A stretch of DNA of 64,000 nucleotides from an uncultured Mycoplasmatota bacterium (GCA_900547995.1 URIY01000001.1:2912-66911); one strand, 5' to 3'; positions 1 to 8,032 are shown, numbered from the stretch's first letter. Numbers and translations: made by a program. Notes: a model not told the origin generated them from the letters alone.

Positions 1-1073
1 GAATTTATAGTCTTTATTTTTTTATCATAAACATTCATTTGATCAATAAACATTTTATAGTGTTCTTCTTGAAGTTTTATATTATGTTTTAAATCATCTA
101 GTTTTGTCATTAATGATTGATTAATAAAAAGATAGTCATCATTTTTATCATAATATTTATAACTAAATTCAAATGGATCGATATGAGATTTACAATAAGG
201 ACATATCTCATTATCATAATTCTTATAGTTTTTATTATTGTCAGAAATATTATTTTTTAATTCCTCTAATAAATGCTCTACTTCAGTTTTACTATTTTGT
301 AATTGAATTATTTTATTTCTCGTATCGTTTAAATTTTTTACTATCTCATTATACTCATTTTTACTTAATTCTATTTCGTGATTTAATGATGTCATATCTA
401 AAGAATAATTGTTGCCAGACAATTCTTTTTCTATTTTTTGTATTAATTTATCTAAATCATTAGCTTCCTTTTTGTTTGCTTCTAATTCATCATTACTGTC
501 CTTTAATTTTTTATCTAAATCATAATATTCTTCATTAAATACACCAAAATGAGATAGCAAAGCATATTTTTTATAATTGCTATACTGTGCTAATCCCTTA
601 AATGAACTAAACGTTGTACAATTTAATCCAGTTTGATCTACATAATTTAATAAATACATATATGTTGGTGGAGTTAATTCCAATCTATTTTCTCTATTTG
701 GTAATTCTATATAAAAATCAAATAGTTCACTTAATTTTTCTGACAATTCTATTCTTCTTGTCGTTTCAAAAATAGTTTTAAAATTAGAATCAACTATTCT
801 GAAATAATTATTTGATCTTATAAAATAATATTTATCATCGTTTATATTTATATCTAATATTGTAGTTTTATTTGCAAAATCCCATTTTGGATCAAATGAA
901 CAATCTGCTCCTAAAGTACTATATATACTTTTCATTATTACAGATTTACCACGTTTATTACCATTTTCCTTACATGAGGTAACGAAATTAATGCCATCTT
1001 TGAATTCAGTATGATATGCTTTTTTTTCTTTTAAAGAGTATATATATAATCCATTTATAACTAATTTTTTCAT
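1..1073 (-). CDS. SMC/Rad50-like ATPase, N-terminal ~357 aa only (LmuB-like; gene continues beyond window start). N-terminal ABC-ATPase-like head with a non-canonical GNKRGKS P-loop-like motif, long coiled coil, CPYC zinc-hook-like motif
   Basis: Manual translation of the minus strand from ATG at 1071-1073: MKKLVINGLYIYSLKEKKAYHTEFKDGINFVTSCKENGNKRGKSV..., heptad-rich Lys/Glu coiled-coil, then ...NEICPYCKSH... (Rad50-type CPxC hook). Start lies 1 nt after the stop of the upstream 351-aa ORF, so the two are translationally coupled. Not in the ORF track because it is truncated at the edge. Confidence 0.45.
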   Translation of the reverse strand, partial: MKKLVINGLYIYSLKEKKAYHTEFKDGINFVTSCKENGNKRGKSVIMKSIYSTLGADCSFDPKWDFANKTTILDININDDKYYFIRSNNYFRIVDSNFKTIFETTRRIELSEKLSELFDFYIELPNRENRLELTPPTYMYLLNYVDQTGLNCTTFSSFKGLAQYSNYKKYALLSHFGVFNEEYYDLDKKLKDSNDELEANKKEANDLDKLIQKIEKELSGNNYSLDMTSLNHEIELSKNEYNEIVKNLNDTRNKIIQLQNSKTEVEHLLEELKNNISDNNKNYKNYDNEICPYCKSHIDPFEFSYKYYDKNDDYLFINQSLMTKLDDLKHNIKLQEEHYKMFIDQMNVYDKKIKTIN

Positions 1074-1074
1074 A

Positions 1075-2130
1075 TTATTTCATTTCCTCCTTAATCTCTT
1101 CTACGCAATATATAACCATAGTAAATATTGTACTTTCATCATCATATATAGGGAATTTAATATCCTGATGGTTATTTTTAAAATTTATTGCATATTCTTT
1201 CAAACTATTAGCATATCCTAATTCTATATCCTTTTTAATTGTATCACAAATTATGTCTATAAATTCATTTTTTTTCTTATCCTTACCAGATATTATTTCT
1301 GTTAACGCTTTTAGACATTTTATTTGAAGGGAAAAATTATCATTTGTTAAACTCGTAATTTGTTCCTCGCATTTTTTATGAAAATCACTATGTTGCGAGT
1401 AATGATAATTAACCATGTCAGTAAACTCTTTTTTACTTATTGCTTTATTTTGATATAAATCTTCAAAGCTACATTCTTTTTCGTATTTCGCTTTATTAAT
1501 AGCTATTGCTTTAATCGAGTCTAATAAAACAGTAGGCTTATTGATAGAACTTTTCTTTTCTTCTTCATAAAACTTGCTTAATTTACCTATTATACTATTT
1601 TCGAAATCTTGAACACCAACATTTCTATATAAATAATAAATGTTTTTTAAGTTAATTGTTTCTTGATTAGTTTCTTTTTGTAAATGTTCTATAATTTTTT
1701 TCTTAACATCTAAATCAATTTCATCTAATAGTATAATTTCATTAGGTTTTGTTGCATATTGATTGTTAACCAAAGGCGCATTCGACACAAGCAATACCGA
1801 AATATTTTCTTTCTCTTCTTCTGTTTTTCCTGATATACTATAAATTCTTCCTATTATTGACTGAGATTTATCACTTTTTTTATTTGTTAAAAAACTAACC
1901 TTATTTGATTTTCCAGTATCGGAAGTTTTTACTTGATAAAACTTTAGTTTATTATCAAAATGTAATTCAATATCGCATACATAGTCAAAAACAACATAAT
2001 AATTATCTATTTTGTTGTAATTATCAATTAATTGCTCTATTCCATATAAAACTTCAAAATCAAATCTATTTTTTGTACGTGATCCTGCTAAGTCATATGG
2101 AAGATTACTATATATCTCCTTTAACTCCAT
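1075..2130 (-). CDS. PD-(D/E)xK nuclease-like protein, candidate Lamassu LmuA (Cap4/DUF4297-type effector)
   Basis: 351 aa. N-terminal segment ...YYVVFDYVCDIELHFDNKLKFYQVKT... fits the D...(D/E)-x-K restriction-endonuclease-fold motif. Tightly coupled upstream of the SMC-like ATPase gene, the gene order expected for lmuA-lmuB. Confidence 0.4.
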   Translation of the reverse strand: MELKEIYSNLPYDLAGSRTKNRFDFEVLYGIEQLIDNYNKIDNYYVVFDYVCDIELHFDNKLKFYQVKTSDTGKSNKVSFLTNKKSDKSQSIIGRIYSISGKTEEEKENISVLLVSNAPLVNNQYATKPNEIILLDEIDLDVKKKIIEHLQKETNQETINLKNIYYLYRNVGVQDFENSIIGKLSKFYEEEKKSSINKPTVLLDSIKAIAINKAKYEKECSFEDLYQNKAISKKEFTDMVNYHYSQHSDFHKKCEEQITSLTNDNFSLQIKCLKALTEIISGKDKKKNEFIDIICDTIKKDIELGYANSLKEYAINFKNNHQDIKFPIYDDESTIFTMVIYCVEEIKEEMK

Positions 2131-2262
2131 TATTATTCCCCCATATAAAAGATAATTTAGATTATTATACCATAAATTGAATTTTTTTATTATATAATAC
2201 TACTTATTATTTTATAATAATTGGAATTATGCTATAATATTATCAGAAATTGGAGGGTTATT

Positions 2263-5577: not shown

Positions 5578-7431
5578 TTAAAAATCTTCTTCGGTAACAT
5601 TATCAGGTATTGTTTCAAATACATCTCTAATATTTACCTTTATATCATTTGGATTATTCTTTGTAGCAAGCATTCCCATAGATAACCAATTCTTATTTCC
5701 ATTATTGTTATCTTGTAATGGGAATACTCTAATAGGTACTTCATTTCTTTGAAGTGGTCCTATATCTAATTTTTCAGTCTCTTTATAATAAGTTCCTTTA
5801 TATAAATTAACTTCATAATATTCATTTAATCTATACAAGTGTTGCATTACATCTTTAATAGGCAAATATTCACTATACCTTATATTTGTATCTACACAAA
5901 CACCATTAAAATCGTATGTAAGAGGTCTCTTTCTATCAATATAACCTTTTCTATATAAGTCTTCATAATCATTATAGAAAGTACTTCTAAAATTTATTTG
6001 CTTTACATGATATTTTTTATTTTTAATTTCTAGTTCAATGTCATCAATATATCGCATAACTATATCAGCTTTAGTTTCTCTATCAAGTAAATCCCAGTTC
6101 TCATTGAAAGCATAATAAGATATTGGTAGTTTAACTTTATTGATGAAGTCCATATCTCTTTTTAATAAAATATCTTCAGTAGTAAAGTTTAATTGTTCAG
6201 CTTGTGAATTTTCTAATAATTTGGAATTAACAAATTTTATTTGACTATCTATTGTTTTAGATTCTTGTTTATATTCTTCTTCAGTAAATACTGAATCAAT
6301 ATATGCTTTCCTAATTCTTTCTTTTTTATTATTTAAACTTTTTAATTCTTTTTCTAACTCAACTTTTGGATCATTTAATTTTGATTTTAAAACTGGTAGA
6401 AAAAACTCATTAACAACATTATCGTATTCTAATATATCGGCAAGTAAAGTTTTAACTGAATTTTCAATAACTTCTTCTTTAATATTGTTTTTACAATCTT
6501 CACATCTATAATAGAAATACCATTTATCTAATTTTAATTTATGAGAAGCACCACCAGCAAGTATTCTTCCACATTTAGGACATTTAAGTTTTTGTAAAAA
6601 AATATAAGTTTGTGTTCTCATATAACTTTTTTGATTTTTCTTTTTTTGAACTTGGCAATTTTCCAATAACTCTCTTGATACAATAGGTTCAACTACATTC
6701 TCATAATAAATAGGTTTATTAAAAGTTTTTCCAGATACAAAGTCTCCTTTATATATTTCATTTGAAATAATACGAAGTATTCCAGTATCTCTCCAATTTG
6801 TTTTTCCTAATACTTCTTCTTGATTAAATATAGTAGCAATATTAGAATAACTTTTACCCTCAAAATATAAGTCATATATTCTTTTAACAATATCTTTAGC
6901 TAATGGATCTATTACTAATTTTTTACCATCTCTTTTATAGCCTAATGGATTTTTACCTGGAATATGACCTTCTTTAATTGCACCGACTAAACCGAATTTA
7001 GTTCCTTCACTTGTTCTTTCAATTTCATTTTGAGAGACACTAGTAAGCATTCTAGCAACTAATTTACCACTTGAATTAGTAGTATTAATTTCTTCATTAG
7101 CACAATCTAAATATGCATTGTTTTCTTCTAGAAATCTCATAATACCTTCTAGGTCAAATACTGAACGAGTTAATCTATCTAATTTTAATACTACAATAGT
7201 ATTACATTTCTTTTCTCTTATATCTTGTAGTAATTCTTCAAATGCAGGCCTATAATTGCCCGTTTTAGCACTTATTCCAGCATCCTTGTATAATTTATAT
7301 ATCTCATAACCTTTATACTCACACATAGCCCTTAAACGCTTTTCTTGTTCTGGTAAACTAAATCCCTCACGAGCTTGATCTTCAGTACTAACCCTGATAT
7401 ATAATCCTGCAACTTTCTTTTCGTTATCCAT
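5578..7431 (-). CDS. large serine recombinase (integrase)
   Basis: 617 aa. N-terminal resolvase catalytic domain ([11 protein letters not shown]..., nucleophilic Ser), recombinase domain, C-terminal zinc ribbon (CPKCGR...CEDCKN). Confidence 0.85.
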
Positions 7432-7649
7432 AAAACTTTCAACTCCTTTTACTAAAAAAGAGGAGCCAATAGTATTTAATAAAGTCTAAATACTACTGAC
7501 TCCTCACAATATTCAATATATAAAATTTTTTTATGTATATATTTTATCATAGATGTACCTCTCTTTCTAGAGAATACCTCTTTCATTGGTTATTTATAAT
7601 ATCACTTTTTTATGATTTGTCAATTCCCTGTTTAGGGAATAAGCAGTAT

Positions 7650-7931
7650 TTAGATTGTTTTTAAATAATCTTCTAATTCTGACAATTTAATCTTATTAGA
7701 TAAGTTTTCAATAAAAATTTCATTAGAATAATTAAAAGCAAGAAATGTAGTATTATTAATTATTATTCTATGTGGCTCAATATAAATTAAGTTAGTTTTA
7801 TCGACTTTTCTAATATTACCATTAATAATAGTTGGTTTATTATTAGTAAAATCACATATGAACTCAATTTTCTTTTTTAGTGATTCTTCTAATGAAAGTT
7901 CTTCTTTAATAATATTTACCATTGTTTCCAT
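7650..7931 (-). CDS. hypothetical small protein (93 aa) between integrase and tRNA-His
   Basis: ORF track only; no motifs recognised. Could be an accessory (directionality) factor, but there is no support for that. Confidence 0.3.
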   Translation of the reverse strand: METMVNIIKEELSLEESLKKKIEFICDFTNNKPTIINGNIRKVDKTNLIYIEPHRIIINNTTFLAFNYSNEIFIENLSNKIKLSELEDYLKTI

Positions 7932-8032
7932 CCTTTCTTTTTAAGTTAGGATAGTTTTTAACAACAAAAAAACTAATCCATTTCTGAATTAGTCATTTAT
8001 CATAACTCGAAAAGTTCGAGCAGATTTCACAA

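Follow-up and report, generated by a model that had tools for sequence, protein, structure and literature searches.

The first 8,032 nucleotides of a 64,000-nt stretch from an uncultured Mycoplasmatota bacterium (GCA_900547995.1 URIY01000001.1:2912-66911; "the window" denotes this whole stretch) form a contiguous gene block next to a tRNA-His(GUG) gene, the sole tRNA of the window. Counted from the tRNA, the block comprises orf93, a large serine recombinase (LSR), a MobV relaxase, a MazF/PemK-like fusion, a 266-aa gene, and the Lamassu genes LmuA and LmuB (Table 1). The original prediction had described a mobilizable island with defense cargo that ends just before tRNA-His and is followed by a conserved backbone. 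All of the genes that it listed were found at their places by open reading frame (ORF) listing and family scans, and AbgT, DUF951, MscS, and ParB/ParA lie beyond the tRNA. Window positions 1..8032 and a further 700 bp to the left of position 1 are interpreted as an integrative mobilizable element (IME) inserted by its own LSR at the extreme 3' end of tRNA-His, a reading to which we assign a probability of roughly 85%. The element is 8,733 bp long and spans window positions 8032 to -700 (contig L002 was used for the far end), the window holding its right-hand 8.0 kb. It has three of the features by which an IME is recognized: its own recombinase, defined ends with an empty site, and a relaxase and origin of transfer (oriT) without mating-pore genes. 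ORF listing and family scans revealed no second recombinase in the element, and none of its seven ORFs matched type IV secretion system (T4SS) or coupling-protein families in the scans, so that its transfer would depend on a helper. An Rfam scan of window 1..8400 returned nothing except tRNA-His.

Table 1. Features of the element and its target tRNA, in window coordinates.
Feature	Position	Strand	Evidence or remark
LmuB, SMC-like Lamassu ATPase, first 357 of 558 codons	1..1073	-	PADLOC LmuB E=1e-104; gene runs past left edge
LmuA, Lamassu effector, N-terminal Cap4-type double-stranded DNA nuclease domain	1075..2130	-	Pfam PF14130 1.2e-29; PADLOC LmuA 4.7e-72
266-aa protein, function unassigned, divergent from Lamassu operon	2263..3063	+	
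Terminator-like hairpin between convergent PemK-fusion and 266-aa genes	3070..3098	-	12-bp stem, then T-rich tail
MazF/PemK-like fusion, 275 aa (gene callers' start: 271 aa)	3170..3997	-	PF02452 on residues 140-242
MobV (Mob_Pre) relaxase, 439 aa	4013..5332	-	PF01076 46.8 bits against a 25.5-bit cutoff
oriT-like site	5454..5515	-	Inverted-repeat arms equal pMV158 IR1; conserved upstream of Mob
LSR, 617 aa, catalytic Ser15	5578..7431	-	Resolvase, Recombinase, and Zn_ribbon_recom domains
Intrinsic terminator/attenuator hairpin and T-run	7454..7505	-	22 nt ahead of LSR ribosome-binding site
Leader ORF, 24 codons, stop codon within terminator loop	7476..7550	-	
Sigma-A-type promoter TTGACA-16-TGaTATTAT for leader and LSR	7596..7623	-	Top site in scan; position conserved in family
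orf93, 93-aa ORF (probable start 7922, giving 90 aa)	7650..7931	-	
Terminator-like hairpin and T-run, element-supplied, just downstream of tRNA-His	7965..7993	-	Inverted repeat I7
Element-derived arm of tRNA-side junction, TTGTGAAATCTGCTCGAACTTTTCGAG	8006..8032	-	Identical in all His-type elements; group-specific otherwise
Shared core TCGCCCCAT	8032..8040	-	Common to tRNA-side junction, far junction, and empty site
tRNA-His(GUG), integration target, intact	8033..8108	-	ARAGORN; Rfam tRNA 62.3 bits

The extent of the element and its empty site were established from metagenome contigs recovered by exact-protein look-up. Contigs of the same lineage (L001-L011) are 99.97% identical to the window and extend the block leftward. 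LmuB is 558 aa at full length in L001, L002, and L012, and the shared sequence stops 97 bp past the LmuB stop codon, at ...CCTTTGTTATCGCCCCA (L002 position 8197, equal to window -700), which places the left boundary outside the window as predicted. Occupants of the site in the window's species were probed with a 92-aa chromosomal neighbor of the tRNA, and ten contexts are shown. Five of the ten (L020, L021, L023, L024, and L027) have a precise empty site, in which an intact tRNA-His is joined directly to TATAGGTATAATAAAATCAGG..., the same sequence that follows the far end of the element in L001 and L002. These empty-site strains are closely related to the window, with flanks of about 99% identity, and supply the comparison with insertion-free relatives that had been proposed. 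The tRNA-His is likewise intact after insertion; its native terminator is displaced beyond the far junction, and the element supplies a hairpin of its own at 7993..7965. In other strains the occupant is a 6.65-kb tyrosine-integrase element with a 16-bp direct repeat, CCCTTATCTCGCCCCA. The site may thus be empty, carry the present element, or carry a tyrosine-integrase element, which makes tRNA-His a hotspot of both recombinase classes. Since the block is absent from sister strains, it is accessory and not core to all relatives, and the site is polymorphic. The tyrosine-integrase element (L022:3176-9825, L025, L026, and L028; site at window 8033) also carries a Zot-like gene and is present in two tandem copies in L025. 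A type II-A CRISPR-Cas9 locus (cas9, cas1, cas2, and csn2) adjoins tRNA-His in empty-site strains (L020:1583-9817), and a 348-aa gene replaces this locus of about 7.4 kb in island-bearing contigs (L001:12824-14986).

The same block occurs in a second lineage (L012-L016, JGI) with 97.45% nucleotide identity, beside a different tRNA-His allele. Its flanks there are unrelated to those of the window and contain glmS at one end and a Myb-like gene at the opposite end. The two hosts are far more divergent than the block, their htpG genes being 74% identical in nucleotide and 66% in protein sequence, and their tRNA-His alleles agree at 63 of 76 positions; the differences within the acceptor and anticodon stems are compensatory. 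The contrast between 97.45% for the element and 74% for htpG and 63/76 for tRNA-His argues for recent transfer between hosts. The possibility that tRNA-His itself travels as cargo was rejected: the alleles differ at paired stem positions and share only the last seven bases, which indicates that the tRNA is chromosomal, though homology with L012 reaches window 8135. Contig L003 had been considered as a copy without the LSR/Mob/PemK block, which alignment rejected; the block is present, and a 155-bp duplication/insertion breaks the PemK gene.

The junctions were compared in tRNA orientation. The attB site reads ...CCCTTATC[TCGCCCCAT]ATAGG, the tRNA-side junction ...CTCGCCCCA|TTGTGAAATCTGCTCGAAC, and the far junction ...TTTGTTATCGCCCCA|TATAGG. 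The deduced attP is ...AGGGTTTCAGATAACCTTTGTTA[TCGCCCCAT]TGTGAAATCTGCTCGAACTTTTCGAG, and the attP junction predicted for the excised circle is TTGTTATCGCCCCATTGTGAAATCTG. A short core flanked by imperfect inverted repeats had been expected near 7935..8030. Such a core exists, but the boundary lies at 8032/8033, overlapping the tRNA 3' end, with the core at 8032..8040. The junctions share only 7-9 bp (5-9 bp across the family), flanked by the motifs CAGAT/ATCTG and GTT(T)C..AGAT as imperfect inverted repeats. Each host keeps its own acceptor-stem bases, which places the crossover 3' of them. The CG dyad center (-6/-5) was rejected as the crossover, since L094 reads TGCCCCA at the tRNA but CGCCCCA at its far end, a T/C mismatch that excludes position -6. 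In L058, where a Gly-type element occupies tRNA-Cys, the shared core is cut to CTCCA, and in Met-type elements it is cut to TACCA. These three comparisons confine the crossover to the end of the tRNA, and strand exchange would take place within its last five bases (N72, N73, C, C, A), for the window element within GCCCCA. On its left arm, attP is similar to the tRNA T-arm (AGGGTT..C..GAT), with the outer motif lying about 4 bp farther from the core. This outer motif changes with the target tRNA, reading AGGGTT for His and GGAGTT for Gly. The left half-site of attB may consist of the T-arm and the 3' strand of the acceptor stem, mimicked by attP with about 4 bp of extra spacing, and the right half-site may be a loosely constrained AT-rich flank.

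Insertion at the tRNA end extends to the whole family of this recombinase. A genome scan found LSR relatives in 265 species-representative genomes, mostly metagenome-assembled genomes of uncultured low-GC gut 'Bacilli'/'Tenericutes', with hosts including Ca. Onthousia, Faecimonas, Faecisoma, CAG:605, and CAG:433. From these genomes, 79 loci were kept and fetched, with LSRs 69-97% identical, and 63 of them have upstream DNA. The order tRNA, orf93, LSR, MobV is conserved across the 79 loci, and the elements measure 5.5-9.8 kb, one larger composite locus excepted. Wherever upstream DNA is available (63/63 loci), a CCA core immediately precedes the start of the element; this core belongs to a complete same-strand tRNA (49), a tRNA 3' fragment (3), or the far end of another element (11). 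Tandem accretion, in which the start lies behind the CCA-ending far end of another element, is therefore frequent (11/63). The core at the far end co-varies with the target, being CGCCCCA for His, GCTCCA for Gly, and TACCA for Met. Loci listed as tandem accretions are L045, L064, L065, L109, L110, L029, L075, L077, L084, L086, L088, L096, and L104; at L110, two elements whose LSRs are only 42% identical are paired at tRNA-Gly.

The target tRNA tracks the LSR clade, expressed as similarity to the window enzyme. LSRs at least 92% identical to it (plus one at 84%) target tRNA-His, those with 73-87% identity tRNA-Gly, those with 76-78% tRNA-Met, and those with 71-77% a Thr, Leu, Phe, or Arg tRNA ending in CACCA. 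A tRNA-Cys, a tRNA-Thr, and a tRNA-His, all ending in CTCCA, harbor Gly-type elements as well; at L108:2610-2704, for example, the tRNA-His has the 3' end ...ATCGCTCCA and hosts a Gly-type element (TAGTGAAATC...). Specificity thus follows the 3'-terminal bases, which suggests that target choice is set by these bases rather than by tRNA identity. His- and Gly-type LSRs are separated by 13 fixed differences, 10 of which fall in residues 159-167 and 226-239 of the linker and recombinase domain.

The LSR has the expected domains (PF00239, 1.5e-33; PF07508, 6.3e-16; and PF13408, 3.6e-4, with 21.3 bits, below the 25.3-bit cutoff), and its catalytic Ser15 lies within YIRVSTEDQ. A sigma-A-like promoter had been predicted ahead of the integrase region. 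The promoter stands, as the best-scoring site within 8.3 kb (7623..7596, minus strand) and in a position conserved across the family leaders, but a leader ORF and a terminator intervene before the LSR gene. Overall, promoter-like sites are no more numerous than chance would give (73 observed, 69.6 expected). The leader of 165 nt has a folding z of -4.95, and its terminator is a 19-20-bp hairpin followed by a T-run (7505..7454, Delta-G -27.7 kcal/mol). This hairpin is present in 55/55 distinct family leaders in at least four sequence versions, with compensatory changes in 12/14 pairs. In most groups, a leader ORF of 23-25 codons with its own Shine-Dalgarno sequence (GGAGG-type) crosses the 5' arm of the hairpin and stops in the loop; it stays in frame in most relatives, and its N-terminal half is variable. 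With moderate confidence, the leader may be regarded as an attenuator that responds to translation and holds recombinase expression down. The ribosome-binding site of the leader ORF also sits in a small upstream hairpin (GAGGTATTCTCTAGAAAGAGAGGTAC). A further observation, made in some strains, concerns L001:4310-4745 / L019:1-9154, where the LSR-617 gene is interrupted right after the Ser15 codon (window 7377..7386; shared core ACT) by another element of about 9.6 kb. This second element carries its own 530-aa LSR (22% identical), a helix-turn-helix (HTH) regulator, and a DnaB_C-like ATPase, and leaves LSR-617 as a 582-aa N-terminally truncated recombinase behind a stop codon. The Lamassu island is presumably locked in place there.

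The constant partner of the LSR is orf93, which stands between the tRNA and the LSR in 67/79 loci (the other 12 are mostly without upstream DNA) and is kept even beside the 42%-identical LSR in L110. The original prediction had called this gene and the 266-aa gene orphans. This proved incorrect, as orf93 has more than 6,800 homologous clusters at 90% identity and the 266-aa protein 219 at 50%, though neither belongs to a named family. For orf93, no Pfam family was found, and its AlphaFold2 (AF2) model (predicted local distance difference test, pLDDT, 86.5) gave no informative fold match in the PDB and, like its sequence, no match to known recombination directionality factors (RDFs). As a directionality or accessory factor of the LSR it is a tentative candidate, and a doubtful one.

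The relaxase aligns with MobM (PDB 4LVI, E=5e-5), with HFDE..PHMH conserved as motif III (HxDE..PHxH). An ungapped alignment of LGKVNHHNLR with LGGAFKHNER of MobM places motif I at H50-N-L-R53, with H50 as the predicted catalytic His. The closest plasmid Mob proteins are 31-37% identical, and by sequence the relaxase is a distant MobV member rather than an equivalog of the curated NCBIfam set. The relaxase-proximal intergenic region had been put forward as a possible oriT, and a conserved pMV158-like site was indeed found between LSR and Mob. On the minus strand, window 5515..5454 reads ACTTTATG-(36 nt including an inner hairpin)-ATAAAGTATAAACGG/TTTC. Upstream of Mob, this structure persists down to a Mob identity of only 44%, with G..C covariation at the base of the stem. 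Its arms are identical to the IR1 arms of the pMV158 oriT, ACTTTAT/ATAAAGT (ACTTTATGAATATAAAGTATAGTGTG/T in pMV158; PMC5863519), and the G/T step nicked in pMV158, 8 nt downstream of the arms, is also present. MobM of pMV158, the MOBV1 prototype, has the HxxR and HxDE..PHxH motifs in common with the element's relaxase, whose relaxase domain is only distantly related. The two origins differ in the loop of the inverted repeat (4 nt in pMV158, 36 nt with the inner hairpin here) and in the nick region (TAGTGTG/T in pMV158, TAAACGG/T at the predicted nick here).

Several points weigh against the interpretation as an IME mobile through its own LSR. The relaxase scores 24.7 bits against the NCBIfam MobV equivalog, whose cutoff is 100, and a downstream half-site as variable as that of the family is unusual for site-specific LSRs. 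The His-type attP pattern had 0 matches in the JGI metagenome contigs, where an excised or circular junction was not found; a degenerate His/Gly attP pattern retrieved one tRNA junction and two tandem accretions only, the accretions being the sole attP-like junctions recovered. Decayed copies occur elsewhere, with Mob split in L012 and the LSR split in L014 and interrupted in L001. The attenuator mechanism and the exact crossover dinucleotide are points that we infer, and the role of orf93 is drawn from its position and co-conservation, its predicted fold matching nothing informative. The missing circular junction, the split or interrupted genes, and the terminator ahead of the LSR gene would also be expected of a fixed, decaying genomic island, formerly mobile and now vertically inherited as cargo beside tRNA-His. 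We consider such an island unlikely, since every window ORF is intact, the site is polymorphic within the species, and the identity among own-lineage copies and with the cross-host copy points to very recent movement. Moreover, the terminator is a regulatory feature conserved in all family members and not a lesion.

An IME moved by conjugation is also to be preferred over a phage satellite or prophage remnant with a phage-type serine integrase, moved by packaging. In PHROG, the LSR is closest to a phage integrase family (4.8e-109), and the tRNA site and small size of the element resemble those of satellites. However, the family scans revealed no capsid, terminase, replication, or packaging genes, and a relaxase and a conserved oriT are present. 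Among 2.9 M viral contigs of IMG/VR, a single LSR relative was found, 56% identical and within an orf93-LSR-Mob unit, which indicates that this is not a phage family. The phage origin is accordingly very improbable. With the phage integrases A118/LI and TP901-1, the LSR shares the domain order and att sites built of imperfect inverted repeats; its closest solved relative, the TP901-1 integrase, matches it in the catalytic domain alone (E=1.2e-20). In the LI integrase, the outer (zinc-ribbon) motif of attP lies 5 bp farther out than in attB (PMC3783163), compared with about 4 bp in the element. The element differs in that it is not a phage and that its attB is a tRNA end with a variable downstream half.

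Among the closest known systems are Tn4451 and Tn4453 of Clostridium (TnpX LSR, TnpZ MobV, and RS_A oriT), which have the same compact build of 6-9 kb, with one LSR, one Mob_Pre/MobV relaxase, an adjacent oriT, no T4SS, and accessory cargo (PMC5704250). TnpX and TnpZ are likened here by description, the best plasmid-borne relatives of the LSR and Mob being at most 35-37% identical. Tn4451 requires no RDF and shows low target specificity, its insertion sites being 2-bp GA (PMC5704250), whereas the element stands strictly at the CCA end of tRNA-His; it further differs by a conserved small partner gene, the leader and terminator, and defense cargo rather than catP. That it is a low-specificity mobilizable transposon of this type lying beside the tRNA by chance, as its two-enzyme composition and size similar to those of Tn4451/Tn4453 might suggest (PMC5704250), is the least credible explanation and is contradicted by the 63/63 family junctions, which fall on tRNA ends of the CCA type and are matched by the far-end core, by its presence at tRNA-His in two hosts, and by an LSR at most 35% identical to any plasmid-borne recombinase. 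The tRNA-directed IME also resembles the streptococcal Ser_1-Ser_4 IMEs, which likewise have one terminal LSR, very short repeats, often a MobV relaxase, and nested 'IME inside an element' arrangements (Coluzzi et al., 2017; PMC5357655). Those IMEs insert inside rumA, traG, snf2, and maff2 and disrupt them, whereas the target of the element stays intact. With Islander-type tyrosine-integrase islands, the element shares the tRNA 3' end as target, the preserved tRNA, tandem accretions, and defense cargo. The recombinase class differs, as do the repeats (16 bp in the tyrosine element of the sister strains against 7-9 bp here).

Textbooks present serine integrases as integrators that disrupt genes or use intergenic sites, and tRNA genes are regarded as the territory of tyrosine integrases. 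The LSR family would be a clear counter-example, and an abundant one, represented in 265 species-level genomes and by thousands of protein clusters. According to reviews, serine-integrase IMEs insert inside protein genes, and no RDF is known for them (PMC5357655; PMC5704250). Of 297 candidate serine-integrase islands in one survey, 14 lay at t(m)RNA genes, unverified; its authors stated that the use of tRNA genes by a serine integrase 'has not been reported previously' and would have to be proven (Mageeney et al., 2020; PMC7192596). No prior description of this LSR family was found in the literature, the coverage of which was incomplete. It is thus apparently an undescribed, large family of serine integrases inserting exactly at the tRNA CCA end. 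An IME bearing defense cargo at tRNA-His is of a known kind; a serine integrase at the CCA end and a specificity-switching family appear to be new. We lean, with reservations, towards a broader view in which the family uses the universal 3' CCA of tRNAs as its crossover region, has been retargeted repeatedly between tRNAs (His, Gly, Met, and Thr/Leu/Arg/Phe) by a few substitutions in the linker and recombinase domain, is paired with the orf93 family and the leader-ORF/terminator attenuator, and serves as a widespread shuttle of defense genes in uncultured gut Bacilli. For genome engineering, it offers a natural series of closely related LSRs, with 72-97% identity, whose differing targets can be read from sequence. 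As so few fixed differences separate His- from Gly-type enzymes, what determines the site choice of an LSR becomes open to direct test. For gut ecology, it represents a compact vehicle moving Lamassu, retron-type reverse transcriptase (RT), kinase, restriction-modification (R-M), Abi, and further defense systems between genera of uncultured low-GC Bacilli.

The cargo of the element in the window is a two-gene Lamassu, with LmuA and LmuB adjacent, co-oriented, and overlapping at stop and start. As in type I Lamassu, an LmuA Cap4/DUF4297 nuclease is followed by an LmuB SMC-like ATPase; the form found here is without LmuC, its LmuB is cut by the window edge, and it rides in a cargo slot that holds other defense systems in relatives. 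This swap site is the segment between the backbone and a conserved far-end stretch of about 60 bp. It holds Lamassu in the window, L012, and L105, and a PDC-M36A candidate in L013; the backbones of L013 and L012 are 98.7% identical. More distant members carry a PD-T4-6-type kinase, a retron-type RT, PDC-M41A, DitA/DitB, a type II R-M system, an OLD-like ATPase, or AbiD. Judged from these gene contents, the distal slot is one that carries interchangeable defense systems. The 266-aa gene accompanies either the Lamassu or the PDC-M36A cargo; its product matched no Pfam, NCBIfam, PADLOC, or PHROG family, and no Pfam domain was found across 32 diverse homologs. Compared with L013:15015-17180, the segment with the 266-aa and PDC-M36A genes is inverted in L015:10543-12705, with breakpoints inside both genes, possibly by misassembly, as that contig has an inverted terminal duplication.

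The MazF/PemK-like fusion has 326 full-length homologous clusters, in which the N-terminal extension of 135 aa is conserved. There is no separate antitoxin ORF between the Mob stop (4013) and the start of the fusion (3997), and the fusion thus lacks the separate upstream antitoxin that characterizes a MazEF/PemIK type II toxin-antitoxin system. Its AF2 model is poor (pLDDT 55), with weak MazF hits as the sole fold matches, and comparison of its N- and C-terminal halves gave an hhalign probability of 4.8% with a suggestive motif alignment. The N-terminal half may be a degenerate second MazF-like domain, and the fusion is likely a stabilizing or toxic module.

For the steps that go beyond comparative genomics, namely excision, the function of orf93, the nick site, attenuation, and helper-dependent transfer, we infer the following life cycle of the IME. 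The LSR gene would be transcribed from the conserved sigma-A promoter through a leader with a short ORF that ends in a strong intrinsic terminator, and recombinase synthesis would accordingly need read-through. The LSR, possibly aided by orf93 as a directionality factor, would recombine the two junctions, releasing a circle with attP (...TTGTTATCGCCCCA|TTGTGAAATCTG...) and restoring tRNA-His and its native flank. The MobV relaxase could then nick the pMV158-like oriT upstream of its own gene, and a co-resident conjugative element not encoded by the IME would transfer the strand. In the recipient, the LSR would recombine attP with the tRNA end, with exchange within N72-N73-CCA, and the Lamassu pair (LmuA Cap4-nuclease and LmuB) in the distal slot may serve as anti-phage cargo.

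The island had also been described as close to the replication origin, which is a fair statement, the likely oriC lying about 40 kb away. Five DnaA boxes fall within 215 bp (window 47,932-48,146), dnaA (46,493-47,857) and dnaN (45,232-46,353) adjoin them just to the left, and GC skew sign and gene orientation switch at about 48 kb. A 617-aa ORF at 54,942-56,795 (plus strand) was considered as a second LSR and rejected, as it has ParB_N and HTH_ParB domains and is Noc/ParB-like; it has the length of the LSR and a long low-complexity C-terminal tail, and is unrelated. Across the origin from the island, an IS91-family gene (Y2 transposase with a zinc-binding domain) lies at window 57167..58411 (minus strand). 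Downstream of parA, window 12828..13928 is an internally repeated small-ORF region, whose copy number and arrangement vary between strains, as seen from extra BLAST matches.

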